Shown piece by piece: positions 2,380 through 29,152 of a stretch of DNA of 64,000 nt. The DNA is taken from assembly GCA_040766725.1 (NCBI GenBank), contig JAXGPZ010000001.1, positions 2,947,215 through 3,011,214 on the forward strand. Direction: 5' to 3'. Below the pieces are notes generated by a model. It was not told where the DNA came from. It saw nothing but the letters and a program-made list of their open reading frames with translations, and ran no database searches. Position 1 is the first letter of the stretch; every line of letters begins with the position of its first letter. Origin of the DNA: Anaerolineae bacterium (GTDB taxonomy: Bacteria; Chloroflexota; Anaerolineae; UBA1429). The position numbers and the translations under genes are program-made.

Positions 2380-3465
2380 GTGATGATCAACTTGCGCATT
2401 CCCGGGCCCACGCCCTTGCCGCCCGACGTGCAGGCGTCCGTTGGGCAGCAGATGATCAACCATCGCGGCGCCGCGTTCGAGCAGCTCTTGCGCGAGACGA
2501 GCGGCTGGCTCAGGCTCTTTTTCGAGACTGAGCAACAGGTCTATATCCTCACCTCGTCGGGCACGGGCGCCATGGAGGCCAGCATCGCCAACACCCTCTC
2601 GCCAGGCGACCGAGTGCTGGCCATTTCCTGCGGCTCGTTTGGCGACCGCTATGACGAGATCGCGCGCGCCTATCGCGCCGACGTGACCAGCCTCAAGTTC
2701 GCCGCAGGGCGGGCCGTAGACCCCGACCGGGTGGGCGAGGCCGCCAGAGCAGAGGGGCCGTTCAAGGCAGCCATCCTGACTCACAACGAGACCTCGACGG
2801 GGGTGCTGAATGACGTGCAGGCCATCGCCGCTGCGGTGCGCGCAGCCGGGCCCGACACGCTCATCATGGTCGACAGCATCAGCGGCCTGGGCGGCGCCCG
2901 CCTGCAGATGGATGCCTGGGACGTAGATGTGGTGCTCACCGGCTCGCAGAAGGCCTGGATGGCCCCGCCGGGCCTGGCGATGATCGCGCTGAGCGCGCGC
3001 GCCTGGCGGGCCTATGAGACGGCGCAGAATCCGCGCTACTACTTTGACCTGGGGCTGGCCCGCCAGTATGCGGCCCGCGGGCAGACGCCGTCTACGCCGG
3101 CGCTGGCCACGCTCTATGGGCTGCACACCGCGCTGCAACGTATGGCCGCCGAGGGCGTGGCAGCGGTGGCCGCGCGCCACGAGGCCCTGGCCGCCCACTG
3201 CCGTGAGCGTGCCCTGGCACTCGGCATGGGGCTCTATGCCCAGGCCGGGCACTATTCGCCCACAGTGACGGCGCTCACTCTGCCTGCCGGGTATCAGCCC
3301 GACGCAGTGCTCAAGACTCTCGTCGAGCGGTACGACATTCACTGTGGCTCCACCAAAGACCCGCGGGTGGGCGTCATCCGCATCGGCCACATGGGCTATT
3401 GCAGCATCGCCGATCTCGACGCCGTGTTTGCTGCGCTGGGCGACATCCTGTCGACGGCATCGTGA
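2380..3465 (+). CDS. class V PLP-dependent aminotransferase (alanine-glyoxylate/serine-pyruvate aminotransferase type)
   Basis: N-terminal 'IPGPTP...', 'ILTSSGTGAMEA', 'LTGSQKAWMAPPGLAMI' (PLP-Lys region) typical of AGXT/SPT family; ~360 aa. Confidence 0.8.
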   Translation: MMINLRIPGPTPLPPDVQASVGQQMINHRGAAFEQLLRETSGWLRLFFETEQQVYILTSSGTGAMEASIANTLSPGDRVLAISCGSFGDRYDEIARAYRADVTSLKFAAGRAVDPDRVGEAARAEGPFKAAILTHNETSTGVLNDVQAIAAAVRAAGPDTLIMVDSISGLGGARLQMDAWDVDVVLTGSQKAWMAPPGLAMIALSARAWRAYETAQNPRYYFDLGLARQYAARGQTPSTPALATLYGLHTALQRMAAEGVAAVAARHEALAAHCRERALALGMGLYAQAGHYSPTVTALTLPAGYQPDAVLKTLVERYDIHCGSTKDPRVGVIRIGHMGYCSIADLDAVFAALGDILSTAS

Positions 3466-5069
3466 CGCAGACAGCCGGCATCGACGCGGGCGTCGACGTT
3501 CCGCCGCCTGGGGCGACGAGCACCGGGTCGGTAGCGCGCGACGCGGCCATCAACTCGGCGGGCAACATCGCCAGCCGCTTGCTCGGGCTGGTGCGCGAGG
3601 CGGTCATCGCCGGCTCGTTTGGCGCCTCGGGCGCCACCAGCGCCTTTGACGCCGTCAGCGCCGTCCCCAAGATGGTGTACGAGCTGCTGGTGGGCGGCAT
3701 GCTCTCGTCGGCGCTGGTCCCCGTGCTCAGCGAGTACACCACCCCTCAGCAAGAACGTGAGCGCGATCACGTGCTCTCGGTGCTCTTTACTCTGTGGGCG
3801 GCGGTGCTGCTGGTCGTGGTGCTGTTGCTCGAGATCGGCGCACCGTGGATTGCCCCGGCGCTGGTGGGCGGCTTTGACGCCGAGCTGTTGGCCACCACCA
3901 CCCTGCTCATCCGCCTGATCGTGCCGTCGATCCTGATCTATGGGCTCTCGGGCATCCTGCAGGCCTTTCACTATGCGCGCAAGCGCTTTGCCTATCCGGC
4001 GCTCGGCGCGCCAGCGCACAATCTGGGCGTCATCGTGGCCGTGCTGCTGCTGGCGACGCGGCTGGGCGTGCCAGCGTTGAGCCTGGCGATCGTGGTGGCC
4101 GCCGTCACGCAGCTCGTGGTGCAGCTTCCGGGGCTCAAAGGCGTGCGCCTGCGCCTCAGCCTCGACTGGCGACACCGCGTGATCCGCCGGCTGCTGGTGC
4201 TCTATGCGCCGGTGGTGCTCAGCATCGTCGTGCAGAACGTGGGCGTGATCATCGATCGCAACCTGGCCTCGCGCACCATCGCCGAGGCGATCACCTACAT
4301 GAACAAGGCCACGTTCCTCATCCAGTTGCCGCTGGGGCCGGTGTCGATGGCGGTCTCGTTGGCGGTGCTGCCCACCCTGTCGCAGCTCGACGCCGCCCGC
4401 GACGATACACGCTTCAAGGCCACGTTGGCCAGGGGGCTGCGGCTGGTGCTGGCGGTGATCATCCCCGCCGGCGTGGGCCTGGCGGCGCTGGGCCGGCCCA
4501 TCATCGAGCTGATCTATGAGCATGGCGCCTACACCGCCATCGACACGGCGCAGACGGTCCGCGCCCTGCAGCTCTACCTCGTAGGGTTGCCTTTTGCCGC
4601 CATCGACCTGCCGCTGGTCTTTAGCTTTTACGCGCAAAAGGACACCGTGCGCCCCGTGCTGGTGGGCATTGCCACGGTCCTGCTCTATCTGGTGGTGGCG
4701 CCCACCCTGGCCTTTGCGCTGGACTGGGGCTTTTACGGGCTGGTGGCGGCCAACTCGGTGCAGCTCACGGCCCATGCGTTGATCATGCTCTGGCTCTTTC
4801 GTCGGCGCTATGGCGGCCTGGCCGGGCTGGGCGTTGGTGCAGTGGCGCTCAAGGCGCTGGTCGGCTCGGCGCCGGTGGCCTTGCTGGCGGGTGGCAGCTA
4901 TGTGGGGCTGCGCAGCTTGCCCATAGGTGGCCTGCCTGGCGAGGTCGTGCGGGTGGGCGTGCCGTTGGTGCTCGGGGCTGCCGGCTATCTGCTCGCGGCG
5001 CGCTGGTTACACATCGCCGAGCTCGAGGAGCTCTGGAGCGCGGTTCGCCGCAAGGTGATGTCGCGCTAG
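3462..5069 (+). CDS. murJ: lipid II flippase MurJ/MviN (start moved to GTG 3462, which overlaps the upstream stop as GTGA)
   Basis: 'SAGNIASRLLGLVREAVIAGSFGASGATSAFDAVSAVPKMVYELLVGGMLSSALVPVL' matches conserved MurJ N-terminus; multi-TM; listed ATG 3399 lies inside the upstream gene. Confidence 0.8.
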   Translation: MTQTAGIDAGVDVPPPGATSTGSVARDAAINSAGNIASRLLGLVREAVIAGSFGASGATSAFDAVSAVPKMVYELLVGGMLSSALVPVLSEYTTPQQERERDHVLSVLFTLWAAVLLVVVLLLEIGAPWIAPALVGGFDAELLATTTLLIRLIVPSILIYGLSGILQAFHYARKRFAYPALGAPAHNLGVIVAVLLLATRLGVPALSLAIVVAAVTQLVVQLPGLKGVRLRLSLDWRHRVIRRLLVLYAPVVLSIVVQNVGVIIDRNLASRTIAEAITYMNKATFLIQLPLGPVSMAVSLAVLPTLSQLDAARDDTRFKATLARGLRLVLAVIIPAGVGLAALGRPIIELIYEHGAYTAIDTAQTVRALQLYLVGLPFAAIDLPLVFSFYAQKDTVRPVLVGIATVLLYLVVAPTLAFALDWGFYGLVAANSVQLTAHALIMLWLFRRRYGGLAGLGVGAVALKALVGSAPVALLAGGSYVGLRSLPIGGLPGEVVRVGVPLVLGAAGYLLAARWLHIAELEELWSAVRRKVMSR

Positions 5070-5671
5070 TCGCTGTTCAGCGCGCGGGCAGGCCGCACCT
5101 CACGCTCCACCCATTTGAGCGGCGCCTCGGGCGGCACATAGCCCTCGATATAGTCGAGCACCGCCGCCGGGGCAGCGCCGACATAGTAGCTGTCGCGATA
5201 GGCGGCATGGGCAAAGCGCTGGCTATAGAGCTGCTCGAAAAAGCGCAGCAGCCCATCGTAAAAGCCATGCGTGTTTACAAAGGCCACCGGGCCCTGGAGA
5301 TAGCGCAACTGTTTGAGGGTGATGACCTGGGCGATCTCTTCGAGGGTGCCAAAGCCGCCGGGCAAGGCCACAAAGGCTTCGGCCTCGCGCTCCATCAGCT
5401 CCTTGCGCTCGGCCATCGTCGCCGTGATGGTCAGCTCGTCGGCTGCTTCGTAGGCCACGCCGTGGTCGACCATCAACTGGGGGATGATGCCGTGCACCCT
5501 GGCGCCGGCCGCCTGAGCGGCACGCGCCAGCTCGCCCATCAGCCCCACGCAGCTGCCGCCGAACACGAGGCTGTGCCCGTGCTCGCCCAGCAGGCGCCCG
5601 AACTCGACGGTCGCGTGCACGTAAGCCTGGTCCACCGCGCCACTCGACGAACAGAATACGCAGATGCGCAT
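5066..5671 (-). CDS. LOG family protein (cytokinin riboside 5'-monophosphate phosphoribohydrolase-like, TIGR00730)
   Basis: 'MRICVFCSSSG...GHSLVFGGSCVGLMGELARAA...GIIP' and 'ALPGGFGTLEE' LOG/TIGR00730 signature. Confidence 0.75.
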   Translation of the reverse strand: MRICVFCSSSGAVDQAYVHATVEFGRLLGEHGHSLVFGGSCVGLMGELARAAQAAGARVHGIIPQLMVDHGVAYEAADELTITATMAERKELMEREAEAFVALPGGFGTLEEIAQVITLKQLRYLQGPVAFVNTHGFYDGLLRFFEQLYSQRFAHAAYRDSYYVGAAPAAVLDYIEGYVPPEAPLKWVEREVRPARALNSD

Positions 5672-5795
5672 CTTGGCCCCCTATCGTAAGGGGCAGCATA
5701 GTGAGCGGGCGCCAGGGTGTCAAAGCGTGCGCGTGCCCGTTGTGTGGCGTGGCCGGGGCGCGCTATACTAAAGGCGTCGAGCACAGGAGAGCGCC

Positions 5796-6881
5796 ATGAC
5801 CGATTGTGAGCTACCGCCCACCGATGCCCAAAACGCTATCCGTCTCACCAAGATGGCCAAGGCGGCGGGTTGAGGCGCCAAACGGGCCTCTGCGGCCCTG
5901 GCGCGGGTCACGCGTCAACTGAGCCAGGTCTTTGACGAGTCGCTCTACCCCGATCTGCTGGTAGGCCTGAGCGCCCCCGACGACGCCGCCGTCTGGCGGC
6001 TCGACGCGCAACGTGCGCTGGTCTTCACCGTCGACTTTTTCACGCCGGTGGTCGATGATCCTTACGACTGGGGAGCCATCGCTGCCGCCAACGCCCTCAG
6101 CGACATCTATGCAATGGGGGGGCGACCGTTCCTGGCGCTCAACCTGGCGGCCTTTCCCGCCACTCTGCCCGAGGAGATCATCGCGCGGGTGCTGCTGGGC
6201 AGCGCGGAGAAGGTGCGCGAGGCGGGGGCCATCGTGGCAGGCGGGCACACCATCGACGATGAAGAGCCCAAGTTCGGCCTGGCCGTGCTGGGCATGACCT
6301 CGCCCGAGCAGATCAGCACCAAAGCCGGCGCACAGCCGGGCGACGTGCTGGTGCTCACCAAACCTCTGGGCGTTGGCATTATCACCACGGCGTACAAGGG
6401 CGATGTCGCTGCGCCAGAGCACGTGGCTGCGGCGGTAGCCTCGATGAAACAGCTCAATCGCGCGGCTGCCGAGGCCCTTGCAGAGGTCAGGCCTCATGCT
6501 GTCACCGATATCACCGGCTTTGGCCTGCTGGGCCACGCCTACGAGGTGGCTCAGCAGGGCGGCGTGCGTCTGCGTCTGCAGTGGGGCACGCTCCCCTTTC
6601 TGCCGGGCGCACGGGCCTATGCGCAGGACCTGCTCTTTCCCGCCATGGCCAGCAAGAACATGAGCGACTATGGTCCCCAGGTGCGCTTTGACGACCGGCT
6701 GGAGTATGAGGACCGTTTGCTGCTCTTTTGCCCCGAGACGTCGGGGGGGCTATTCGTGAGCCTATCGCCGGCCGACGCCGAGCGCTATGTAGCGCGCTGC
6801 CGCGAACTGGGCCAGGCGGCCTGGGTCATCGGCCAGGTGTTGCCGGCCGATAGCGGCGAGCGGGCCATCGAGGTGATCTAG
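5796..6881 (+). CDS. selD: selenide, water dikinase SelD, selenocysteine-containing (in-frame UGA=Sec at 5871-5873); the ORF track shows only the post-UGA fragment 6048..6881
   Basis: ATG 5796 preceded by AGGAGA (5785-5790). Translation reads MTDCELPPTDAQNAIRLTKMAKAAG-U-GAKRASAALARV...FTVDFFTPVVDDPYDWGAIAAANALSDIYAMGG..., which aligns to the E. coli SelD N-terminus (IRLTQYSHGAGCGCKI...), with UGA exactly at the Cys17 position. The AIRS-domain remainder is clearly SelD. Confidence 0.85.
5874..5905 (+). promoter_or_regulatory. bacterial SECIS-like stem-loop immediately 3' of the selD UGA
   Basis: gcgcca(5875-5880)/aac bulge/gggcc(5884-5888)-loop tctgc-ggccc(5894-5898)/tggcgc(5899-5904): 11-bp interrupted stem starting 2 nt after UGA, apical loop ~16-20 nt downstream. 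Confidence 0.6.
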
Positions 6882-6956: not shown

Positions 6957-8915
6957 ATGCCCCAGCTCAAGCCGCTGGTGCGCCCCAGGTCTGACCGCCG
7001 GCCGGCGAAAGACACCCGCCCGCCTGGGCAGGCGCTTTCGCCCGATGAGTTGGCCATGCTGCGCGCCAGGGGGCGCGCGGCGCCAGCCATGTTGTCGAAC
7101 GGGGGCCTTGCGGCCCTGGTGCGACAGATCGGCAACCGCGCCGCCGGCGCCTATGTGGCCCGTGTGCCGGGCGACGAGGACCTAGATGCCCTGCTGGGCG
7201 GCGGACCCACCGCCGCCCAGGCTCCCAGCACTGGGGTCGCCGCGCCACCGCCCTCTGAGACAGCCCCTGCGCCCGAGCCCGCCACAGCGGCGGGCCCTGA
7301 AGAGGCCGGGGCCGCGCCGCCCGAAGCTGCCGGCGCCCCTACGGCGGCTGAGGGCGAGCAGCCAACTGCCCCTGAAGCCAAGCCCACTCCGCCTGTACGT
7401 GTGTTGAGCCCGGTGCTCCCGCCTCGGAATATCACGGGCGGCGGCCCACAAGAGGGCCTCGTGCCCGCCGGGCCCGTGGCAGGCGTCAAGCCGCCTGCGG
7501 GCGCCTTTGAGCCCAAGAAGCAGCCCTGGCCGCCCAAGCCGGGCGCTGCAGGTGGTCAGCCCATGGAGGGCGGCCTCAAGGGGCCGGGCGCCATCAGCCG
7601 CCCCGAGGCGGTGCCCGCCATACCGGCCGCTCCGTCCACGGCCGCCGGGATGACGCCGTCGACCCAGACGCCGGCAGTCGGCGCAGCCGCGCCGGCTCCA
7701 GCAGGAGCCACAGCAGAGGCGGCACCCGCCGCGCCGGAGACCACTGCGGCCACGGGGCAGACCCCCGTCGAGGCCGAGACCAACGCTGCCACTCGCACCG
7801 CTGAGACGCAGGGTGCGACGCAGGCCGAGTCGGCAGGCCAGGCGGTCACGTCCGAGGCGCAGACGGCCGGGGCTGGCGTCGAGGAAGCGACTGCCGAGGC
7901 GCAGGCCACCGAGGCCGAGGCGCCCGCAGCGGCAGCAGCCGAGCGCGAGCCCTCGTGGATGGACGCGGCGCGGCAAACGCTGCAACGTGTGCTGGGCTAT
8001 GTCAGCGACCGCGCGCGGCAGGCCCTGCACCTGGTCGATGGCCTGGGCACGCGCATCGTCGACCTGGCCCGCCAGGGCGTGCAGGCGGCCACCAACGCCA
8101 TCCGCACAGCCGGTGCTATGATCTCGGGCTCCATCACCCGGCTGCTGGCCACCCTGAGCAGCACCATCTCAGCGCTCGTCTCGCGCGCCCAGGGCGTTGC
8201 CCGCGAGATCCGCGAGGCCGCTGGCCGCGCCGTTAACTGGGTGCTCTCGCTGATGGGCGATGTGGGCGAGCGCATCCGCAACGGCGTCACGTCGTTTCTG
8301 CAGGGCGCCTACCGGCGGTTGGTGCCCATGGTGCGCAACATGCGCCTGGGAGCCGAGCGAGCGTTGGCCACTCTCACCAACTATGTGGTGAGCGCGATCA
8401 GGCAGCGCGGCCAGCAACTGCGCCAGATGGTGCAGCGTCTGTTGATGCAGATCACCGAGCGGATCCGGCTGCTACGCCTCGCGATTCGCACCGCCATCGA
8501 GATATTGCTGAACGGCGAGCCGCCGGCGCCCGAGGCCGCGGCGCGTTGGGTGCGAGAGCGCTTGCGCCGCGTAGGCCTGCCGCCACTGCAGGCGCTCGGC
8601 CAGGCGCTGACCCGCGCTGCAAGAGCGGCCGGCCGGGGCATCCGCGAGGCGCTGCGAGCGGTCGTCGATCCCCTGGCCAGCGCCTACCGCAGTGCGGCAG
8701 GCTTTATGCGGATGAGCCTGGCGCCTATCCTCGAAGGCGCCCGCGAGTTTGCGCCCGAGATCGTCCAGGAGGCAGAGATCGGCGCCGGCCAGGGCGAGAG
8801 CGCCGTGCAGACGATCGGCAGTGCCATCGACGCGGAAGTGCTGAGCACCGAGGCCGCCGCTCAAGAAGGCGTCGCCACACTGGCGTCAGAGATCAACACC
8901 ATCGCCGAGGTCTAG
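6957..8915 (+). CDS. hypothetical protein: N-terminal conserved-looking segment, ~250-aa Ala/Pro/Glu/Thr-rich disordered acidic linker, C-terminal amphipathic helical-repeat region
   Basis: ORF 652 aa. N-term 'LAALVRQIGNRAAGAYVARV' resembles the LQRxIGNxAV motif I recall near the N-termini of DUF4157-family proteins (recalled from memory, unverified). The C-terminus is predicted all-helical repeats. The gene sits 75 nt downstream of selD on the same strand. Confidence 0.5.
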   Translation: MPQLKPLVRPRSDRRPAKDTRPPGQALSPDELAMLRARGRAAPAMLSNGGLAALVRQIGNRAAGAYVARVPGDEDLDALLGGGPTAAQAPSTGVAAPPPSETAPAPEPATAAGPEEAGAAPPEAAGAPTAAEGEQPTAPEAKPTPPVRVLSPVLPPRNITGGGPQEGLVPAGPVAGVKPPAGAFEPKKQPWPPKPGAAGGQPMEGGLKGPGAISRPEAVPAIPAAPSTAAGMTPSTQTPAVGAAAPAPAGATAEAAPAAPETTAATGQTPVEAETNAATRTAETQGATQAESAGQAVTSEAQTAGAGVEEATAEAQATEAEAPAAAAAEREPSWMDAARQTLQRVLGYVSDRARQALHLVDGLGTRIVDLARQGVQAATNAIRTAGAMISGSITRLLATLSSTISALVSRAQGVAREIREAAGRAVNWVLSLMGDVGERIRNGVTSFLQGAYRRLVPMVRNMRLGAERALATLTNYVVSAIRQRGQQLRQMVQRLLMQITERIRLLRLAIRTAIEILLNGEPPAPEAAARWVRERLRRVGLPPLQALGQALTRAARAAGRGIREALRAVVDPLASAYRSAAGFMRMSLAPILEGAREFAPEIVQEAEIGAGQGESAVQTIGSAIDAEVLSTEAAAQEGVATLASEINTIAEV

Positions 8916-9844: not shown

Positions 9845-10591
9845 TCAGCCCTCCCGACAGATGTGATCGAGGCAGAACTGCGCAGCCGCGGGCACCTGCG
9901 CGTCCCAGGTAAAGTCATCATGCGCACCGGGATGGACGACCCACTCGTGCGCCCGCCCCAGGCCCAGCAGGTGCTCGTGCCAGGCGAGGTTGGTGCGCCA
10001 CAAAAAGTCCTCGGTGCCGCAGCTCTGACGAATGGCGGGCGCAGGCGCCGGACTCGCCGCCACACGTTCGGCCAGCACAAACAGGTCGTTGTCGGGGGGC
10101 AACGCCGCGCCGAGCCGGCCTACGTCGTCGTCAGCGTGTCGTTCAGAGGGCTCGTGGGCAAAGTAGGTCGAGCCAGACACCGATGCGCAAGCGCCAAACA
10201 GGTCGGGGTGGCGCAGCGCCAGCAAGAGCGCGCCGTAGCCGCCCATCGACAGCCCCATCACGGCGCGAGATTCGCGACGCCGCTGCGTGGGAAAGACCCG
10301 TTCGACATAGCCCAGGGCGTCTTGCCAGATGGCGTCCTCCCAGCGGATGCCGCCCGACCAGGGCTCGTTGCAGTAGAACGACCGCCCGCCGTCGGGCATC
10401 ACCACCAGGGCGTCGGCATTGCGCAAGAGCCGCGCGGCCTGATGGTGGCGCACCATGCTGGCGTAGCTGCCGGTGAGGCCGTGCAGCATGAACAGCACCG
10501 GCCAGGGGCCGGGCGCCTCGGGCACGATGACGTTCATCTCGGCTTCGCGGCCCAACGCGGGGCTGTAGTAGCTGATGGCGCACAGCGACAT
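9845..10591 (-). CDS. esterase (esterase D / S-formylglutathione hydrolase-like alpha/beta hydrolase)
   Basis: 'PVLFMLHGLTGS', 'GLSMGGYGAL' nucleophile elbow; start set at ATG 10591 preceded by GGGAGG. Confidence 0.7.
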   Translation of the reverse strand: MSLCAISYYSPALGREAEMNVIVPEAPGPWPVLFMLHGLTGSYASMVRHHQAARLLRNADALVVMPDGGRSFYCNEPWSGGIRWEDAIWQDALGYVERVFPTQRRRESRAVMGLSMGGYGALLLALRHPDLFGACASVSGSTYFAHEPSERHADDDVGRLGAALPPDNDLFVLAERVAASPAPAPAIRQSCGTEDFLWRTNLAWHEHLLGLGRAHEWVVHPGAHDDFTWDAQVPAAAQFCLDHICREG

Positions 10592-17173: not shown

Positions 17174-18829
17174 ATGTTGCGGAAAAAGTCGTTGTTCGCA
17201 GTGCTGGCGGTCTTGATGGCGCTGGCAATCGTCCTCAGCGGCTGTGCCAAGGGCGGCGCCACGGGCCCCGAGCTCAACATGAACCTGAACACCGAGCCGC
17301 CGACGGCCGACCCCTCGTTGGCCACCGACACCACCTCGGTGCAGGTCGATGAGCTGCTGTTCCTCGGTCTGACCGACTTTGATGACCAGACGCTCGAGGT
17401 CATCCCCGAGTTGGCCACCGAGTGGAGCGTCTCGGCCGACGGTCTCGAGTGGACCTTCAAGATGCGCGATGACGTGTTCTGGGTCCGCTACAACCCCGAG
17501 AACGGCAAGGTCGAAAAGCTCGACAAGGTCACCGCCCATGACGTGGTCTATGGCGTCAAGCGCACCATCGACCCCAACACGGCTTCGGACTATGCCTACG
17601 TCGACTATATCATCAAGAATGCCTATGCCGTGAACACGGGCGAGTCGACCGATCTCGACTCGGTGGGCGTTGAGGCGGTGGACGACTTTACAGTCAAGTT
17701 CACCCTCGAGCAGCCGGCCGGTTACTTCCCCGGCATCGCCGGCATGTGGGTCAACCGCGCGCAGCCGCGCGAGGCCATCGAGACCTACGCCGAAAAGTGG
17801 ACGGAGCCCGGCAACATCGTCACCAACGGCTCGTACGTGATGACCGAATGGGCGCACGAGAGCCACATGACGATGATCAAGAACCCGCACTATTTCGATG
17901 CCAAGAACGTCCAGATCGGCAAGATCAACTGGGCCATGGTCGTCGAGGAATCGACCTCCTTTGCCATGTACGAGAACGGCGAACTGGATGTGGCGGCCGC
18001 GCCGCTGGCCGACATCGACCGCATCAAGGCCGACGCGACGCTGTCTGCCGAGCTGTACATTGCGCCGAACCTGTGCACCTACTACTACGGGTTCAACAAC
18101 ACCAAGCCGCCCTTTGACAACAAGCTGGTGCGTCAGGCCTTCTCGGCGGCCATCGACCGTCAGAAGTTGATCGACACGGTGCTCAAGGGCGAGCAGAAGC
18201 CGGCCAAGACCTTTGCATGCCCGGGCATCTTTGGCAGCCCCGCTGAAGACCCCAACTTTGAGGGTATCACGTTTGACCCGGCCAGGGCCAAGCAGCTCCT
18301 CTCGGACGCTGGCTTCCCCAACGGCGAGGGCCTGCCCGAGATCACCCTCATGATCAACACGTCCGAAGGCCACCAGAAGATCGCCGAGTTCATCCAGGCA
18401 TCCTGGAAGGAGAACCTGGGCGTCGAAGTGCAGCTCGCCAACCAAGAGTGGGCGGTCTACCTGAAGACGGTGCATGAGGATGCGCCGCAGGTCTACCGCA
18501 TGGGTTGGTGCGCCGACTACCCCGACGAGAACAACTGGGTCGGCGAGGTCTTTCACCCGATCAAGGGCTCCAACGAGCCCAAGTGGGACCCCGAGTCAGA
18601 GTCGGCCAAGCGCTACATGCAGCTGGTGGAAGACGCTGCTGCCTCTTCCGATCCCGAAGAGCGTCAACAGCTCTACCATGAGGCCGAGCAGATTCTGACT
18701 GTGGATGAGGCCGTTATCGCGCCGATCTACTACTACACCCGCGTTGTGCTCACCAAGCCGTATGTGAACCGCACCTATGCCCCGTTGGGCGGCGAGCATA
18801 TCGACAAGTGGAGCATCGAGGGCAAGTAG
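17174..18829 (+). CDS. ABC transporter substrate-binding lipoprotein, family 5 (oligopeptide/dipeptide type)
   Basis: Lipobox 'LSGCAKG'; family-5 SBP motifs ('WEFKMRDDVFW', 'YRMGWCADYPDENNW'). Confidence 0.85.
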   Translation: MLRKKSLFAVLAVLMALAIVLSGCAKGGATGPELNMNLNTEPPTADPSLATDTTSVQVDELLFLGLTDFDDQTLEVIPELATEWSVSADGLEWTFKMRDDVFWVRYNPENGKVEKLDKVTAHDVVYGVKRTIDPNTASDYAYVDYIIKNAYAVNTGESTDLDSVGVEAVDDFTVKFTLEQPAGYFPGIAGMWVNRAQPREAIETYAEKWTEPGNIVTNGSYVMTEWAHESHMTMIKNPHYFDAKNVQIGKINWAMVVEESTSFAMYENGELDVAAAPLADIDRIKADATLSAELYIAPNLCTYYYGFNNTKPPFDNKLVRQAFSAAIDRQKLIDTVLKGEQKPAKTFACPGIFGSPAEDPNFEGITFDPARAKQLLSDAGFPNGEGLPEITLMINTSEGHQKIAEFIQASWKENLGVEVQLANQEWAVYLKTVHEDAPQVYRMGWCADYPDENNWVGEVFHPIKGSNEPKWDPESESAKRYMQLVEDAAASSDPEERQQLYHEAEQILTVDEAVIAPIYYYTRVVLTKPYVNRTYAPLGGEHIDKWSIEGK

Positions 18830-18848
18830 CCCCTGCGCGTCAGTGCCA

Positions 18849-18890
18849 AAGAGACACGTGGCCGCAGGGCCACGTGTCTCTTCTTTTGTT
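18849..18890 (+). terminator. rho-independent terminator/attenuator between SBP and permease genes
   Basis: aagagacacgtggcc-gcag-ggccacgtgtctctt (15-bp perfect stem) followed by cttttgtt. Confidence 0.7.
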
Positions 18891-18995
18891 GTCAACTCGC
18901 TCTTTGGTGCTATACTGCACACATTATCGATCTGGCCGCGATGGGCGCCCGGGCCACACGACGTCTCCCATCGCGTTGGCTGAAGGAATGGTGCG

Positions 18996-19943
18996 ATGAG
19001 CCGCTTCATCATTCGACGTCTGCTATGGACCATACCCGTCATACTGTTCATCTCGATTGTGACGTTTTTGCTGGTGCATTCGGTGCCTGGGGGCCCTTTT
19101 GACAAGGAAAAGCCGCGTCCGGCCGAGATCCAGGCCAACTTGATGCGGCACTATGGCCTCGACCAGCCCCTGTGGAAGCAGTACACCGACTATATGGGTG
19201 TGACGCGCAACCCCAGCGGCAAGTTCGCGGGCATCTTGCAGTGGGATTTCGGGCCCTCGATTGCGCAGCGCAGCCGCACCGTCAATGAGATCTTTAAAGC
19301 CCATCTCCCTGTTTCGGCAGTGCTGGGCGTGGCCGCCTTGGCGATTGCTGTCGGACTGGGAGTGCCTCTGGGCATCGTTGCGGCCCTGAAACAGAACTCG
19401 CTGTGGGACTATTTGAGCATGGCCATCGCGATCGTGGGCGTCTCTGTGCCCAGCATCGTCATTGGTCCTTTGCTGATTCTCGTGTTCGCCCTCACGTTGG
19501 GGTGGCTGCCGGTGGCGGGGTGGGGCACGTTCAGACACATCATCATGCCCGCCCTGGCCCTGGGGCTCGGCTCCTCGGCCATCATCGCGCGGCTCACGCG
19601 AGCGAGCATGCTGCAGGTCATCCGCGAAGACTATATTCGCACCGCGCGCTCCAAGGGCCTCAGTGAAAAGGTCGTCATCGTGCGCCATGCGCTCAAGAAC
19701 GCCTTTATTCCCGTGGCCACGGTGCTGGGGCCGATGTTTGCGGCGCTGGTGACCGGGACCTTTGTGGTCGAGCAGATCTTTGCCATCCCGGGGTTGGGCA
19801 AGTACTTTATCAGCAGCATCACCAACCGCGACTATTCGGTGGTGATGGGCACCACCCTGCTCTATGCCCTCTTCCTGGTGGCCTCGAACCTGTTCGTCGA
19901 CATCACGTACGCATTCCTCGATCCTCGCATCCAGTACGAGTGA
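18996..19943 (+). CDS. ABC transporter permease (DppB/OppB-like)
   Basis: 6-TM permease with 'EAA-like' loop 'IREDYIRTARSKGL'; N-term 'MSRFIIRRLLWTIPVILFISIVTFLLVH'. Confidence 0.85.
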   Translation: MSRFIIRRLLWTIPVILFISIVTFLLVHSVPGGPFDKEKPRPAEIQANLMRHYGLDQPLWKQYTDYMGVTRNPSGKFAGILQWDFGPSIAQRSRTVNEIFKAHLPVSAVLGVAALAIAVGLGVPLGIVAALKQNSLWDYLSMAIAIVGVSVPSIVIGPLLILVFALTLGWLPVAGWGTFRHIIMPALALGLGSSAIIARLTRASMLQVIREDYIRTARSKGLSEKVVIVRHALKNAFIPVATVLGPMFAALVTGTFVVEQIFAIPGLGKYFISSITNRDYSVVMGTTLLYALFLVASNLFVDITYAFLDPRIQYE

Positions 19944-19959
19944 AAAGAAGGCTAGCGCG

Positions 19960-21036
19960 ATGACCAAGCAAGAAACCGCTGTGCGAGCCCTGGCCTCAGG
20001 CCGAGTTGACGCGCAGACCCCCGCCGGCGTGGGTCAGCAAAAAGTCACCAACCTCTGGCAAGATGCTCTTTACCGTTTGACTCGTAACCGTGCCGCTGTG
20101 TTGGGCCTGATCTTGATCGTCCTGCTCATCTTGATGTCGACCTTTGCCCATGTGGTGGCGCCGATGCACTTTACTGCCGGAGATGCCGCCCTCAACAACG
20201 CCGTGCCGCTGTGGCTCACCAAAGTGCTGCCGGGCCACATGGAGACCTACGCCCAGATCAGCAGTATCTACCCCGTTGGTGCAGACTATCTGGGGCGAGA
20301 CCTGCTTAGCCGCGTGATCTATGGCACGCGAGTGTCGCTGCCGGTCGGCTTTGTGGGCGCTATCACCGCGCTCATCATCGGGCTGATCTATGGCTCGATC
20401 TCTGGGTACTATGGCGGCAGGGTGGACAATGTGATGATGCGCATCGTCGACATCATGTACGCCTTTCCCACCATGCTGCTGATCATTTTGATGATGGCGT
20501 TCTTCAAGAGCAGTTTTGGCGGGGCTGCCCGGCCTGGCTCGCTGGCCTACGAGTTCAACCGCATCAACGCTGTGGTTGACAAGATCCTGGGCCTGCAGAG
20601 CGGCGGCATGCTCTTTATCTTTATCGGCATCGGCCTCACGGCCTGGATGGGCATCGCCAGGTTGGCGCGTGGCCAGATCCTGTCGCTCAAAGAGAAAGAG
20701 TTCATCCTCGCGTCGCACATGATCGGGGCCCGCGATGGCCGCATCATCTGGCGGCATATTCTGCCGAACATCATCGGCCCTATCCTCGTGTCGATCACCC
20801 TCGCCATTCCTGGGTACATTTCGACCGAAGTGTTCCTGAGCTTTATCGGACTGGGCGTCGATCCGCCGGCCCCGAGCTGGGGGTCGATGATCTCTGACGG
20901 CGCCAAAGCCTTGCGCTCATACCCGCACCAGGTGTTGCTGCCGGCGTTGTTCCTGGCCGTCACCATGTTCGCGTTCAACTTTCTGGGCGACGGCCTGCGT
21001 GACGCGCTCGATCCGCGTATGCGCGGCACCAAGTAG
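19960..21036 (+). CDS. ABC transporter permease (DppC/OppC-like)
   Basis: 'LGRDLLSRVIYGTRVSL' / 'ASHMIGARDGRIIWRHILPNI' OppC-type; start set at ATG 19960 just after upstream stop. Confidence 0.85.
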   Translation: MTKQETAVRALASGRVDAQTPAGVGQQKVTNLWQDALYRLTRNRAAVLGLILIVLLILMSTFAHVVAPMHFTAGDAALNNAVPLWLTKVLPGHMETYAQISSIYPVGADYLGRDLLSRVIYGTRVSLPVGFVGAITALIIGLIYGSISGYYGGRVDNVMMRIVDIMYAFPTMLLIILMMAFFKSSFGGAARPGSLAYEFNRINAVVDKILGLQSGGMLFIFIGIGLTAWMGIARLARGQILSLKEKEFILASHMIGARDGRIIWRHILPNIIGPILVSITLAIPGYISTEVFLSFIGLGVDPPAPSWGSMISDGAKALRSYPHQVLLPALFLAVTMFAFNFLGDGLRDALDPRMRGTK

Positions 21037-21098
21037 GGTCGGCGTCGCACGCATCGGGGCAACCTGAGCGTTGCGGCCTGGAGACAGGCGAGAGGTCT

Positions 21099-22769
21099 AT
21101 GTCGCGCAAGGGCTGGATCATTACCGCAGTCATCGTATCAGCGTTGCTGACGCTCATCTTGTGTGGCGGCGTGGCGGCGGTGGTGGCCTATCGCTCCATG
21201 GGTAGTGGCCAGGGCGCTCAAGGCGCAGCGCCAACGGCCACGGCGCCGGCGGCAGTCATCCCGGCAGGGGCCGGCGGCGGCCAGGTGCGCCTGGTAGGCA
21301 GCATGCCGCCCACCCTCGATCCAGCGCTGGTGCAGGATAGCACCTCGGGCGAGTACGTGGTGCACCTGTTCAGTGGCCTGGTGGCGCTGAATGCCGATCT
21401 AGAGGTGATCCCCGCGCTGGCCGAGCGCTGGGACACCAGTGCAGACGGTTGCACCTTTACATTCTACCTGCATCCTGAGGCTGCGTTTGGCGATGGCAAA
21501 CCGCTTGACGCGGCAGCGGTGGTGGCGTCGCTCGAACGCGCCTGCAGCCCCGAGCTGGCGTCGCCGGTGGCGCTCAGCTATCTGGACGACATCGTGGGCG
21601 CTGCCGCCTATCACTACGGTCAAGCCGACAGCATCGCCGGCCTCGAGGTGGTAGACGGGCACACGGTGCGCATCACCATCGATAGCCCCAAGAGCTACTT
21701 TTTGCCCAAGCTGACCTATCCTACGGCAGCGGTGATCGACGTCGAGCAGGCCGAGCGCAATCCGCAGACCTGGTTCGTCGAGCCCAACCCGAGCGGCCCC
21801 TTTGCGCTCGAAGAGATCTCGCGCGACCGCATCGTGCTGGTGCGCAACGAGCGCTATGTGGGCCGCCAGGCCAGCATCACGCGGGCCACGTACGACCTGA
21901 CGCCCAGGCTGCCGATCACCCAATACGAGATGGGCGAGATCGACATCACCCAGTTCGGCGGCTCTGAGCTCGACCGGGTGCTCGACCCCTACAATCCGCT
22001 GCATGACGAGTATCTGGCCGTGCCAGAGTTGAGCGTGCAATACCTGGGCTTTAACCTGGATGCGCCCCCGTTCGATGATCCGCTGGTGCGTCAGGCCCTG
22101 GCCCATGCGGTCGACCGCGAAAAGCTGGCCACGCTGGTGCTCAATCGCTCGGCCGTGGCCGCCTACACCGTGTTGCCGCCCAACATGCCCGGCTACGTGG
22201 CCGCAACGCCCGGCGCCGTGCCCATGTATGACCCTGAGAAGGCACGGCAACTGCTCGCGGCGTCGTCGTACGGCGGCCCCGAACAGTTGCCGCCTATCGT
22301 CCTCACCGTGGCCGGCACCACCGGCCACATGAGCGCAGTCGACCGGGCCCTGCTGGCCATGTTCGAAGAGACCCTGGGCATCAAGATGACCGTCGAGCAG
22401 GTCGAGTGGGCCGACATGCTGCAAGATATGAACGAACGACGTTTTCAGGTATACTCGGCTGGCTGGATCGCGGATTTTCCCGACCCGCAGAACTTTATCG
22501 ATGTGCAGTTTCACAGCGCCAGTCCGCACAATGACACGGGCTATGCTAACGCAGAGGTCGATCGACTGCTGGAGCAGGCCCGCGTAGAGCAAGATCAGGC
22601 GCAGCGGATGGCCCTCTACGCCGAAGCAGAGCGGCTCATCCTCAGTGATGCTCCGTGGGTCACCCTGACCCACGGCTATGCTTATTATCTCGTCAAACCG
22701 TACGTCCGGGGGTTCAGAGGCAACGCTGCCCTCCACCCCTGGTTGTGTGATATCTACATCTTTAATTAG
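21099..22769 (+). CDS. second family-5 ABC substrate-binding protein, N-terminal TM-anchored (not lipobox)
   Basis: N-terminal TM helix 'IITAVIVSALLTLILCGGVAAVVAY'; family-5 SBP body ('AGWIADFPDPQNF'). Confidence 0.8.
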   Translation: MSRKGWIITAVIVSALLTLILCGGVAAVVAYRSMGSGQGAQGAAPTATAPAAVIPAGAGGGQVRLVGSMPPTLDPALVQDSTSGEYVVHLFSGLVALNADLEVIPALAERWDTSADGCTFTFYLHPEAAFGDGKPLDAAAVVASLERACSPELASPVALSYLDDIVGAAAYHYGQADSIAGLEVVDGHTVRITIDSPKSYFLPKLTYPTAAVIDVEQAERNPQTWFVEPNPSGPFALEEISRDRIVLVRNERYVGRQASITRATYDLTPRLPITQYEMGEIDITQFGGSELDRVLDPYNPLHDEYLAVPELSVQYLGFNLDAPPFDDPLVRQALAHAVDREKLATLVLNRSAVAAYTVLPPNMPGYVAATPGAVPMYDPEKARQLLAASSYGGPEQLPPIVLTVAGTTGHMSAVDRALLAMFEETLGIKMTVEQVEWADMLQDMNERRFQVYSAGWIADFPDPQNFIDVQFHSASPHNDTGYANAEVDRLLEQARVEQDQAQRMALYAEAERLILSDAPWVTLTHGYAYYLVKPYVRGFRGNAALHPWLCDIYIFN

Positions 22770-22803
22770 GGGGAGCACTTTCCCCTCAGGAGGCAGCGAT
22801 TCT

Positions 22804-23792
<989 letters not shown>

Positions 23793-23796
<4 letters not shown>

Positions 23797-24800
23797 CGCA
23801 GGAAGCACTTTTGCAGGTTCGCGACCTAAAGATGTACTTTCCGATCACCCGAGGCATTCTGGTGCAGCGCCACGTGGGCGACATCAAGGCTGTCGACGGT
23901 GTGAGTTTTGATGTGTTCCGCGGCGAGACGCTGGGCCTGGTGGGCGAGAGCGGTTGCGGCAAGTCGACCACAGGTCGCGCCATCTTGCAGCTCTACCGGC
24001 CCACCGCCGGCCAAGTGCTGTTCCAGGGCCAGAACCTCACCGAACTCAAGGGTGAGCCGCTCCGCAAGATGCGTCGCAGCATGCAGATGATCTTTCAGGA
24101 TCCCTACGCCTCGCTGAACCCGCGCATGACGGTGGGTGGCATCGTGGGCGAGCCGTTCGAGGTGCACAACATCTTGCCCAAGAGCCAGCGCCGGCAGCGC
24201 GTCCAAGAGCTGCTCGAGATCGTGGGGCTCAACCCGTATTTCATCAACCGCTATCCCCACGAGTTCTCAGGGGGGCAGCGCCAGCGCATCGGTGTGGCGC
24301 GCGCCCTGGCTGTGAACCCCGATTTCATCGTCTGCGACGAGCCGATCTCGGCGCTCGACGTGTCGATTCAGGCGCAGGTGATCAACCTTCTGGAAGAGCT
24401 CCAGGAGCAGTTCAACCTGACCTATCTGTTCATCGCCCATGACCTCTCGGTGGTGCGGCACATCAGCACCCGCATCGCGGTGATGTATCTTGGCAAGATT
24501 GTCGAGCTGGCCAGCCGCCGTGAGCTGTACACCGAGCCCATGCACCCCTACACGCAGGCGTTGCTCTCAGCCGTGCCCATCCCCGACCCGGAAGTCGAGG
24601 ACCATCGCCAGCGCATCATCTTGCAGGGCGATGTGCCCAGCCCGGCAAACCCGCCCTTGGGCTGCAACTTTTGCACGCGTTGCCCCGTCAAGCTGGAGAT
24701 GTGCGACACGGTCGAGCCGGACTTTGTCGAGTACAAGCCGGGGCACTTTTGCGCCTGCCATCGCGTCGAACGCGAGCTGGGGCGCCCCACGGCCAGCTGA
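23793..24800 (+). CDS. ABC transporter ATP-binding protein (OppF/DppF-like)
   Basis: Walker A 'GESGCGKST', '[15 protein letters not shown]', '[11 protein letters not shown]'; ATGA overlap with upstream gene. Confidence 0.85.
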
Positions 24801-26078: not shown

Positions 26079-26284
26079 GACAGCACCTCCTCGAGAGCAG
26101 GCCGCAACCGGCACGACGCATGACGCGGGCCGACTGGGTGCGACCAAGGCTCAACCCGCTCTCACTTACAACATAACATAATCCAGGGGTGTCGTCAATA
26201 GTGTGTCGGCGGCTGGCAACCTAGCCAGTCTCCATCCGCCGGTTGCCGGCAAGGCGCGGGGTGCAGCATCCGCCTCAACGCTGC

Positions 26285-26290
26285 TATAAT
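26285..26290 (+). promoter_or_regulatory. TATAAT -10 hexamer 6 nt upstream of the histidine-kinase ATG (possible leaderless transcript)
   Basis: gcTATAATgagacgATG at 26283-26299. Confidence 0.3.
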
Positions 26291-26296
26291 GAGACG

Positions 26297-28165
26297 ATGA
26301 AAGCACGTCAGCAGCTCATCGAGCCCACCGAGGCGAACCGACCGGCGTGGTCGGCCGGCAGTGCCCTGCCGCCATGGCGCTGGCTGCAACGCGCCGGCCT
26401 ACGGGCGCAACTGCTGGCCACCACAGCGTTGCCGCTGCTGATTCTGATGGCGATCGTGGCGGTGGTGGGCCTGACGACCTATACGCACATGACGCAGTCT
26501 CTCGTCCAGGATCGTGACGCCGAGCTGGCAGGGCTCTCGGCGCGTCAGGTGGCCGACCACTGGGCCGAGACATTGCTGCTCCTCTCGCAAGTGGCCGGCT
26601 CCAATGAGTTGCGCAGCGGCGATCCTGTCAGCGCCGGGCAGATTCTGGCCGCCAACGATGCGCTGCTCCGTCGCTTTGACGACCTGCTGGCCACCAATGC
26701 CAGTGGCGAGGTGATGGCCAGCACCGGCGCCACCCCTCTGCCCACGCTCGCCGATCAGCCCGTGTTCGTGCGGGCGCGCGACGATCGCCGTCCGGTGCGC
26801 TCGACGGTCTTGCGCTCAGAGCAGGGCGCCGACGTGATCCTGGTAGCGGTGCCGGTCTATGACCAGAACCGGCGCTTTGGCGGCTGCCTGGTGGGCGTGT
26901 GGGAGCTGGGTGGCGACGGCATCGCTGCGCCCCTCAGGCTCGTCAGAGCGGGCTCGGCTGCTTTCTCCTATCTGGTCGATGAAGAGGGGCGCGTCTTGTG
27001 GCACCCGCAGGCCGCCCTGGTGGGGCAGGTGGTCGCCGACCACCCCGCTGTGGCGCGAGCGCTCTCTGGGGCCACGGGCGCCGAAACAGTGGCCGATGGC
27101 GGCCGCACCCTGGTGGTGGGCTATGGGCCCATCCCTGCCAACGCGCTCAGCAGCTCGCTCTTTGCCGACCCGAGCTGGCAGGGGTGGATGCTGTTCGTCA
27201 GCGAACGCTGGGAGGACATCACGGCGCCCTTCCGCCCCTTCTTGGTGCTGGTGTCGTTGCTGATCACGCTGATGGTGCTGGTGCCACTGTTGCTGCTCGC
27301 CTTTAGCAGCCAGCAGGTGATCGCCCCGCTACAATCGTTGGTGGCGCAGGTCGACCGGGTGGCGGCTGGCGAGTTCAGCACGCAGGTCTCGGTCAACCGT
27401 GGGCCGAGCGAGGTGCGCAACCTCGAGCTCAAGTTCAACGAGATGGTGGCGCAACTGCGGCGCTACCAGGCCGACATCCAGAACTATGTCACCTCGGTGC
27501 TGAACGGCCAGGAAGAGGAGCGCAAGCGCATTGCCCGCGAGCTGCATGACGAGACGGCGCAGATGTTGATCGTCATCGGTCGGCGCATCGAGGATGCCCA
27601 GGAGCAGGCCACCGACGCGCCCCTCAAGGCCTCGTTGGGCGAGCTACGCGACATGGTCGACAACACCCTCGAGGGCGTGCGTCGCTTTACCAGCGACCTG
27701 CGCCCGCCCTTGCTTGAGGAGCTGGGACTGGCCAACACCATCGAGATCCTCGGGCGACGCACAGCCCGCGAAGACAACCTCGATGTGGAGGTCGAGATCA
27801 GCGGCGAGCCACAGGCCTTGCCGCCTGAACATGAGCTGGCGCTGTATCGGCTGGCGCAAGAGGGCCTCAGCAACGTGCGCCGCCATGCCAGTGCCACCCG
27901 GGTCGACATGGCGCTGCGCTACGAGCCCGCAGCCGTCACCCTGACCATCACCGACGACGGCGTCGGCTTTAGCGTGCCGCAAGACACCTCGGCGCTGGTG
28001 GCAGGCGGGCGTCTGGGGCTCATGGGCATCTATGAGCGCGCCCGTCTGTTGGGCGGCACCGCGAAAATCACTTCAGCCGAGGGCCAAGGCACCACCATCC
28101 GGGTCACCTTGCCGATGGACGCGGCCGCTAGCAGAGCGGCCTCGGCCCACCAGGGTCAGGCTTGA
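26297..28165 (+). CDS. sensor histidine kinase (NarL-partner type: Cache-like sensor, HAMP, HisKA_3, HATPase_c)
   Basis: TM1, then a periplasmic domain and TM2. HAMP-like 'LQSLVAQVDRVAAGEF'. 'RKRIARELHDETAQML' HisKA_3 His box. C-terminal 'GVGF...GGRLGLMGIYERARLLGG' ATPase G-boxes. Confidence 0.8.
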   Translation: MKARQQLIEPTEANRPAWSAGSALPPWRWLQRAGLRAQLLATTALPLLILMAIVAVVGLTTYTHMTQSLVQDRDAELAGLSARQVADHWAETLLLLSQVAGSNELRSGDPVSAGQILAANDALLRRFDDLLATNASGEVMASTGATPLPTLADQPVFVRARDDRRPVRSTVLRSEQGADVILVAVPVYDQNRRFGGCLVGVWELGGDGIAAPLRLVRAGSAAFSYLVDEEGRVLWHPQAALVGQVVADHPAVARALSGATGAETVADGGRTLVVGYGPIPANALSSSLFADPSWQGWMLFVSERWEDITAPFRPFLVLVSLLITLMVLVPLLLLAFSSQQVIAPLQSLVAQVDRVAAGEFSTQVSVNRGPSEVRNLELKFNEMVAQLRRYQADIQNYVTSVLNGQEEERKRIARELHDETAQMLIVIGRRIEDAQEQATDAPLKASLGELRDMVDNTLEGVRRFTSDLRPPLLEELGLANTIEILGRRTAREDNLDVEVEISGEPQALPPEHELALYRLAQEGLSNVRRHASATRVDMALRYEPAAVTLTITDDGVGFSVPQDTSALVAGGRLGLMGIYERARLLGGTAKITSAEGQGTTIRVTLPMDAAASRAASAHQGQA

Positions 28166-28333
28166 GCGCTAACATCGGCATAAATGCGGATATCGAATGG
28201 CTAATTTGGCGGATGGTTCCCAGGTCGATCCCCGGTATGATAGGGTCGTGGCGGGAAGGAGACGACGGCTTTCCTGCAACAAGCTGAATTCCATCCGGCG
28301 TGGGATCAGCACTCTTCTCCTCCTTGGTTTGGC

Positions 28334-28373
28334 GGGCCTCGATGACCGCATTGGGCGGCGGTCATCGAGGCCC
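28334..28373 (+). promoter_or_regulatory. perfect 14-bp inverted repeat hairpin in the 318-nt HK-RR spacer
   Basis: gggcctcgatgacc(28334-28347)-12 nt loop-ggtcatcgaggccc(28360-28373); no downstream T-tract. Confidence 0.4.
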
Positions 28374-28446
28374 GTCAGCGTGTTGGCCCAAGGCGCCCCA
28401 GCTCTACGCGCTCTCGGGCGCTCCTTGCGGAGCATGTGCCCCGACC

Positions 28447-28452
28447 TATAAT
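28447..28452 (+). promoter_or_regulatory. TATAAT -10 hexamer upstream of response-regulator gene
   Basis: ccTATAATgcacc ~30 nt before ATG 28484. Confidence 0.3.
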
Positions 28453-28483
28453 GCACCTGACTATCTTCAGGGGTGGGTCAGCG

Positions 28484-29152
28484 ATGGAACCGATCCGCAT
28501 TCTGATTGCCGATGACCATGCCGTGGTGCGCGAGGGTACGCGTCAGATCCTCGATCGCGAGGCAGACATGCGCGTGGTTGCCCAGGCCGCCGACGGCCAG
28601 GAGGCCATCGACCTGGCGGTGAAAGAGCAGCCGCGCGTGGCGGTGCTCGATATCAGCATGCCGGGCGTCAACGGCATCGAGGCGACCCGCAAGATCAAAG
28701 AGCTGTTGCCCTCTACCGCGGTGCTGGTCTTTACCGCCTATGACTATGACGAGTATGTCTTTGCCATCCTCGAAGCGGGCGCAGCAGGATACCTGCTCAA
28801 GAACTCGCGCGGGTCGGAGCTGATCGAGGCCGTGCGACGGGTGGCTGCCGGCGAGTCGGTGCTCCACCCGGCCATCGCCGCCAAGGTGCTCAACCGCGTG
28901 TCGCGACGCGAAAGCCCTGCCGAGGAGACGCCCGTCGAGTCGCTGACCGAACGTGAGCTCGAGGTGCTGCGCCTGGCAGCGCTGGGCCACTCGAACCGCG
29001 AGATCGCCGACCAGCTTTATGTCAGCCCGCGCACGGTGCAGTCTCACATGGCCAACATCTTTGGCAAGCTGAACGTGGGCTCACGCACCGAGGCGGTGAT
29101 GGTGGGGCTCAAGCGCGGCTGGATCCACCTGGGCGACCTGACCGAGGAGTAG
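28484..29152 (+). CDS. NarL/FixJ-family response regulator (REC + LuxR-type HTH)
   Basis: '[13 protein letters not shown]...[13 protein letters not shown]' receiver; C-terminal '[43 protein letters not shown]' LuxR HTH. Confidence 0.85.

Follow-up and report, generated by a model that had tools for sequence, protein, structure and literature searches.

Reading frame and identity of selD

This locus raises the question of whether an in-frame TGA near the 5' end of selD, the gene for selenide, water dikinase (selenophosphate synthetase), is a stop codon or a codon for selenocysteine (Sec). The gene lies on the forward strand of a 64-kb stretch (64,000 nucleotides, hereafter the window) of contig JAXGPZ010000001.1 from an Anaerolineae bacterium of the phylum Chloroflexota. 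A first-pass annotation, made from the letters of the sequence, had proposed a Sec-containing SelD that open reading frame (ORF) calling had missed. Our analysis upheld this proposal through a full-length match to TIGR00476, the pairing of Cys and Sec at one codon in 148 homologous loci, the pattern of selection on the coding sequence and a conserved hairpin of Sec insertion sequence (SECIS) type after the UGA. We place at about 0.93 the probability that the locus is a Chloroflexota selD in which the catalytic residue is a genetically encoded Sec.

The ORF list for the selD region contained only a fragment of 277 amino acids at 6048..6881, starting from GTG 6048, as the first-pass annotation had said. 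The ATG at 5796-5798 on the + strand, the ribosome-binding site AGGAGA, the in-frame TGA and the open frame beyond it were likewise all read where that annotation had placed them. On translation, TGA 5871-5873 was the sole in-frame stop between ATG 5796 and TAG 6879-6881. The elements of the gene are as follows.

5796..6881, + strand: full coding sequence of selD, 361 codons including the putative Sec26, then TAG at 6879-6881
5785..5790, + strand: ribosome-binding site AGGAGA, 5 nt 5' of the ATG, read from the sequence
5871..5873, + strand: UGA, codon 26, predicted codon for a catalytic Sec, aligned with E. coli Cys17
5880..5882, + strand: AAA, codon for Lys29, the Lys of the UxxK motif, aligned with E. 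coli Lys20 in 3u0o
5805..5807, + strand: TGT, codon for Cys4, in a short N-terminal tail and conserved in the closest clade

Profile searches were run with the 361-amino-acid product in which TGA was read as Cys. As had been proposed as a check, the conceptual translation was compared with the SelD family TIGR00476, and the match ran end to end (E = 1.9e-108; 362.4 bits against a cut-off of 125; profile positions 1-310 of 311, from residue 16). NF002098 was matched over residues 12-360 (9.1e-101; 337.2 bits against a cut-off of 299; positions 3-346 of 347), and the best match among solved structures was E. coli SelD, PDB 3u0o, over residues 11-360 (7.5e-73). In the latter alignment, AQNAIRLTKMAKAAG-U-GAK of the window was paired with SENSIRLTQYSHGAGCGCK of E. 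coli SelD, which places codon 26 opposite Cys17 and Lys29 opposite Lys20, so that the TGA indeed occupies the catalytic Cys/Sec position. SelD of Aquifex aeolicus gave the same alignment of the catalytic Cys/Sec as E. coli SelD. The U-G-A-K of the window, located in a glycine-rich N-terminal loop, is a form of UxxK, the motif that PMC13188914 gives for selenoproteins of the selenophosphate synthetase type. The domains AIRS (PF00586) and AIRS_C (PF02769) were present in a 99% identical protein (P0001) and in the best 120 relatives. The product would make selenophosphate from selenide and ATP. These results indicate that 5796-6881 is an intact, full-length selD, and neither a 277-amino-acid fragment nor a pseudogene.

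Conservation of the TGA codon and selection on the coding sequence

We compared the locus with 148 homologous loci of selD from genome and metagenome collections. The codon aligned with codon 26 was TGA in 79 loci and TGC or TGT in the other 69. TGA forms were found in Chloroflexota, Anaerolineae, Acidimicrobiia/Actinomycetota, Bacillales (Planococcus, Virgibacillus), Gemmatimonadota and Planctomycetota, and Cys-codon forms mainly in Actinomycetes. The peptide upstream of the codon (…RLT…AG) was kept in frame across all homologous loci.

Most of the database entries are cut short in a similar way. Among the best 120 relatives, 119 start 3' of the UGA and are 269-381 amino acids long (e.g. MARVTRHL…, VFDESLYP…), which agrees with the expectation of the first-pass annotation that standard annotators truncate the gene. 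The exception, P0055 (61% identity, 367 amino acids), is full length because it has a Cys codon at the site. The annotation correction thus extends to many truncated public SelD entries of Chloroflexota.

Substitutions were counted between the window and L004, a Chloroflexota metagenome-assembled genome whose SelD shares 82% amino-acid identity. The 25 codons 5' of the TGA carried 12 synonymous and 2 non-synonymous changes, the 58 codons from the TGA to GTG 6048 carried 16 and 4, and the remainder of the gene 87 and 60. The portion dropped by gene callers is therefore the most constrained part of the protein, and 5796-5870, which the first-pass annotation had singled out as a segment whose lack of conservation would speak against it, is conserved in relatives. 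The counts point to purifying selection on the encoded peptide both before and after the UGA.

These data bear on a different reading of the locus, in which the UGA is a true stop and the gene is either a pseudogene or a truncated SelD that starts downstream, for example at GTG 6048. Gene callers give exactly such products, as the 119 truncated database matches illustrate, and the Sec machinery was not seen in the 64-kb window. However, the truncated product would be without the glycine-rich loop bearing the equivalents of Cys17 and Lys20. Mutagenesis of E. coli SelD has shown that both residues are needed for activity. The substitution ratios before the UGA and between the UGA and GTG 6048 are also those of a translated peptide under purifying selection, and a pseudogene is further at odds with a frame in which the single stop is common to 79 loci and the N-terminal part is under the strongest purifying selection. 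Across several phyla the TGA alternates with Cys codons only, and, as described below, the SECIS-type hairpin is specific to TGA forms. We regard a true stop as very improbable, and Sec at codon 26 remains the reading that we prefer.

Hairpins downstream of the UGA codon

Two hairpins were predicted directly after the UGA.

5884..5898, + strand: hairpin 1, GGGCC-ucugc-GGCCC, 5 bp, -10.4 kcal/mol, from folding and conservation
5899..5917, + strand: hairpin 2, UGGCGCG-gguca-CGCGUCA, 7 bp, -11.6 kcal/mol, candidate SelB-binding apex of the SECIS

Their conservation was examined in a gapless alignment (A1) of 63 distinct TGA homologues, covering 60 nt from the UGA onward. Hairpin 2 kept a single register, with 80.7% of cells paired and changes on both sides in all 7 of its 7 pairs, and its covariation score exceeded those of all shuffles and all slid controls. 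Hairpin 1 was predicted in 63/63 TGA homologues, with its loop centre 21.1 +/- 1.0 nt from the U of the UGA. The hairpin 1 segment averaged -8.6 kcal/mol in TGA forms, and Cys-codon forms with a comparable G+C content averaged -4.1 kcal/mol (Mann-Whitney p = 1e-15). The stem register of hairpin 1 varied among lineages, and compensatory changes were seen in the close relatives L005 and L089. Since the register shifts in this way, fixed-register pair counting found just 39.7% of cells paired over the 63 sequences, and it was set aside in favour of per-sequence folding.

Published criteria for bacterial SECIS elements (bSECIS) comprise a loop of 3-9 nt with a G in its first two positions, an upper stem of 4-16 bp, a distance of 16-37 nt from the UGA to the loop and a folding energy no higher than -7.5 kcal/mol (PMC13188914). 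Hairpin 2 agrees with all four, having the loop GGUCA, 7 bp, a distance of 32 nt and -11.6 kcal/mol. Hairpin 1 of the window falls outside them, with its G at the fourth loop position and a spacing of 15 nt. A hairpin within the criteria was found in 57/63 TGA sequences, compared with 6/66 Cys-codon homologues and 7% of shuffled TGA sequences. In 44 of the 57 it was hairpin 2 only, in 12 hairpin 1 only, and in 1 both. The 44 sequences of the far type have a loop GUN or GGUCN located 32-33 nt after the UGA. In the 12 sequences of the near type the loop is GGC or CGGGU, 16-17 nt after the UGA, and the far hairpin has been lost.

Synonymous change was also reduced in this region. Against L004, the 16 codons after the UGA (codons 27-42) showed 1 synonymous change and 15 identical codons, compared with 27 and 34, respectively, in the flanks (Fisher p = 0.007). 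Synonymous sites so nearly frozen are characteristic of selection at the RNA level. The stability of the 50-nt stretch from the UGA, taken alone, was not unusual (z = -1.28). The co-occurrence of a conserved UGA with a SECIS-type hairpin is, as judged from these comparisons, well beyond chance.

The first-pass annotation had described an interrupted hairpin at 5875-5904 and placed the SECIS there. Its arms are present (GCGCC 5875-5879 with GGCGC 5900-5904, and GGGCC 5884-5888 with GGCCC 5894-5898) and the inner stem, which corresponds to hairpin 1, is conserved, but the outer stem is not. L005, L089 and L090 have lost the pairing of 5875-5879 with 5900-5904 and show no compensatory changes there, and this pairing is incompatible with hairpin 2. 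Hairpins 1 and 2 together fold at -22.0 kcal/mol, versus -19.3 kcal/mol for the less stable 5875-5904 hairpin, and with columns 1-13 kept single-stranded, as inside the ribosome, the predicted fold consisted of hairpins 1 and 2. A further candidate, the minimum free energy hairpin that RNAfold placed at columns 2-20 of the isolated 50-mer, pairs the UGA itself and was rejected, because it cannot form while the ribosome is on the UGA. Loop sequence, agreement with the published criteria and likeness to the E. coli fdhF element lead us to consider hairpin 2 (5899-5917, GGUCA), rather than the 5875-5904 hairpin, the most likely SelB binder; the earlier hairpin is half right, in its inner stem.

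It is possible, if rather doubtful, that the element is a two-hairpin SECIS with a GGUC apex and hairpin 1 as a folded spacer, in which the SECIS position switches between lineages and an N-terminal tail Cys, which might pair with the Sec, has replaced the second Cys of the CGCK loop. Folding of the spacer 5884-5898 would then bring the effective single-stranded spacing to ~10-11 nt, and relatives would have switched to a G-rich loop on the first hairpin and lost the second. Two alternating SECIS positions within one protein family would be mildly new, slightly beyond the textbook.

Proposed mechanism and Sec machinery

The proposed mechanism follows the bacterial Sec-insertion pathway summarised in PMC13188914 and PMC1794560. 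The ribosome would initiate at ATG 5796. Once the UGA is in the A site, the SECIS hairpin, most likely 5899-5917 with its GGUCA loop, would tether SelB-GTP-Sec-tRNA(Sec) on the mRNA, and the hairpin at 5884-5898 would serve as a folded spacer or lower element. Delivery of Sec by SelB would compete with RF2, and without selenium or the Sec machinery translation would end after 25 residues. Because SelA would need the selenophosphate made by SelD for Sec-tRNA(Sec), the synthesis of SelD would depend on SelD activity. The first-pass annotation had stated that Sec-containing SelD exists in some bacteria and is self-referential in this sense, and the literature bears this out (PMC13188914, PMC1794560).

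Several observations weigh against this interpretation. Neither selA, selB nor a tRNA-Sec gene was found in the 64-kb window by Pfam and NCBIfam scans of ~58 ORFs, ARAGORN and Rfam, and the gene tables of three Chloroflexota relatives (L164, L166, L167) list no Sec genes within 10 kb of selD. Rfam searches (whole window at the gathering threshold; 5750-6000 at E <= 10) returned chance-level matches only, with no curated family for the element. As for the choice of SECIS, hairpin 1 occupies the position of the E. coli minimal SECIS and is within the criteria in 12 relatives, and hairpin 2, at 32 nt from the UGA, is near the far end of the 16-37 nt range.

ARAGORN called zero tRNA genes in the window and no tRNA-Sec in any examined locus whose title names Chloroflexota or a class within it. 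A tRNA-Sec gene does adjoin a TGA-containing selD in seven loci that are more distant (L017, L021, L022, L105-L107, L119). Chloroflexi are already on record with selenoproteins and tRNA-Sec (tRNA-Sec: PMC5389517). The comparative evidence makes it unlikely that the Sec machinery is absent from the genome.

As a separate observation, loci from Planococcus, Virgibacillus and others outside Chloroflexota (L017, L021, L022, L105-L107, L113, L118, L119) have a tRNA-Sec gene a few kb or less from selD. In L118 it lies directly 3' of a Cys-form selD.

An unlikely alternative: decoding of the UGA as a standard amino acid

The UGA might instead be read as Cys or another standard amino acid, through a selC*-type tRNA-Cys(UCA) or near-cognate read-through. 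A selC*-type tRNA-Cys whose anticodon is UCA has been described in some deltaproteobacteria, with a selD opal codon as reporter (PMC5389517); the opal codon of Desulfomonile tiedjei selD was readable as Cys by such a tRNA and gave active SelD (Mukai et al., PMC5389517). Unusual (8/4) tRNA-Sec structures have been noted in Chloroflexi as well (PMC5389517). Against this, the conserved hairpin fits the consensus of a SelB-dependent SECIS and resembles the apex of the E. coli fdhF element, and in related TGA-selD loci it is a canonical tRNA-Sec that adjoins the gene. Moreover, 14/38 confidently coding ORFs of the window end in UGA, which therefore functions there as a stop, and the code is not reassigned. 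Decoding as a standard amino acid thus appears highly unlikely for codon 26. A scan for further in-frame TGA genes based on G+C content at third codon positions (GC3) gave only off-frame artefacts and an adjacent same-frame gene pair (9845-9847) in the window, and the GC3 filter is uninformative in a sequence of 67% GC, since selD itself was also missed.

That the TGA arose by mistake during sequencing or assembly of a Cys-type selD, for which the one base separating TGA from TGC or TGT would suffice, has a negligible probability and is already refuted by the occurrence of the TGA in independent assemblies, namely with identical flanks in same-species metagenome contigs (L001-L003 from three sequencing runs, and L088) and in the relatives of 82% amino-acid identity (L004, L084-L087).

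N-terminal tail cysteine

In the closest SelD clade the loop reads AKAAG-U-G[A/G]-KR, without the second Cys of E. coli CGCK. A Cys located 20-23 residues ahead of the Sec, in the short N-terminal tail (MTDCELPP, MVTCQLPD, MNCVLGAL, MTVCEPRV and others), is kept in the window, in L004, L005, L089, L090, L092, L164, L166 and L167, and in the Cys-form P0055. Elsewhere among the Sec forms, 31 sequences carry a Cys at +2 and 14 carry one at -3. The tail Cys may be the partner thiol for Sec. Its presence in a clade without the +2 Cys is a small point slightly beyond the textbook.

5' leader and gene neighbourhood

Over 80 nt of the 5' leader, the window and L004 were identical at 26 positions, and the only conserved blocks were TATACT and GGAGA. 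The former is contained in the block GCTATACT, which is conserved between the two leaders, and the GGAGA block of L004 is at the position equivalent to the ribosome-binding site of the window. The first of these blocks gives one further candidate feature.

5764..5769, + strand: possible -10 box TATACT of selD, suggested by the block conserved between the window and L004

A sigma-70 scan called no + strand promoter at 5764..5769. On the - strand of the intergenic region between selD and the LOG-family gene, a sigma-70-like promoter was found at 5695-5723 (TTGACA, 17 nt spacer, TATGCT; 10/12 matches), directed at the divergent LOG-family gene 5066-5671.

The neighbours of selD in the window encode MurJ, a LOG-family protein, a 652-amino-acid protein, an asparaginase and similar products. 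The upstream order (2380-5671) is FixG_C/GNAT protein, class-V aminotransferase, MurJ, LOG-family (divergent) and selD. This order recurs in L164, whose SelD is 65% identical, with no selenium link evident. The place of the class-V aminotransferase gene (2380-3465) upstream of selD is kept in L001, L002 and L164. It was considered as a Sec lyase or selenium-delivery enzyme and rejected, its best matches being transaminases of the aspartate/serine-glyoxylate type and the cysteine desulfurase model giving just 26 bits.

Directly 3' of selD, the 652-amino-acid ORF (6957-8915, + strand) had no above-threshold Pfam and no NCBIfam match, and it is found at the same position in L001-L003. Farther along the window, 17174-24800 holds a complete Opp/Dpp-type peptide ABC transporter cluster with 2 family-5 solute-binding proteins, 2 permeases and 2 ATPases, followed at 26243-29152 by a Cache-HAMP histidine kinase and a LuxR-type response regulator.

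Comparison with known systems

The finding corrects the annotation of a gene of a familiar kind and is a textbook case that raises no new biological question. Its value lies in annotation quality and in what it implies for the selenium trait of the organism, not in discovery. No bacterial selenoprotein families are more widespread than SelD and FdhA, and in published surveys Sec-containing SelD was found in Sec-decoding organisms only (PMC1794560). The gene very probably marks the present organism as able to decode Sec.

The window product resembles E. coli SelD (3u0o) in its conserved catalytic loop and Lys20 equivalent over residues 11-360. It differs in that the E. coli loop is C-G-C-K, with a Cys codon and without a SECIS, whereas the window has UGA, predicted to encode Sec.

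The closest model for the RNA element is the SECIS of E. coli fdhF, the reference element for bacteria, whose sequence was taken from the MG1655 genome. Both are stem-loops in the coding region shortly after the UGA, with GU in the apical loop (G23 and U24 in fdhF). The apex sequences are GCAGGUCUGC in fdhF, GCAGGUnCUGC as the consensus of hairpin 2 in the SelD family, and GCGGGUCACGC, with the loop GGUCA, in the window. In fdhF the upper stem-loop starts ~11 nt and the GGUC loop 18 nt after the UGA, on one long stem. In contrast, hairpin 2 of the window begins 25 nt and its loop 32 nt after the UGA, and a separate 15-nt hairpin occupies the fdhF position. The bulged U17, a feature of the E. 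coli fdhF SECIS, has no evident counterpart in the window.

The nearest relatives of the gene are those of the Sec-SelD family (TIGR00476), which ranks second in breadth of distribution among prokaryotic selenoprotein families and has been experimentally verified (PMC13188914, a 2026 review). Sec-decoding organisms without FdhA all have a Sec-containing SelD, and the idea that the Sec trait is possibly maintained by SelD, which is self-supporting, or by FdhA was stated in 2006 (PMC1794560). Known members include SelD of Aquifex aeolicus (PDB 2ZOD/2YYE, solved as a Cys variant) and selD of Desulfomonile tiedjei, with its opal codon at position 15. The window differs from the family in its loop A-A-G-U-G-A-K, which is without the +2 Cys where many Sec forms have U-A-C-K or U-G-C-K, and in the Cys that its closest clade carries in a 15-residue N-terminal tail; there is no other departure. 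In the remaining respects it is like the family: it belongs to the same enzyme family with the order AIRS and AIRS_C, and the predicted Sec is in the N-terminal glycine-rich loop, three residues ahead of the conserved Lys. The candidate SECIS likewise lies in the coding region directly after the UGA, and synthesis of the protein would depend on the protein itself.

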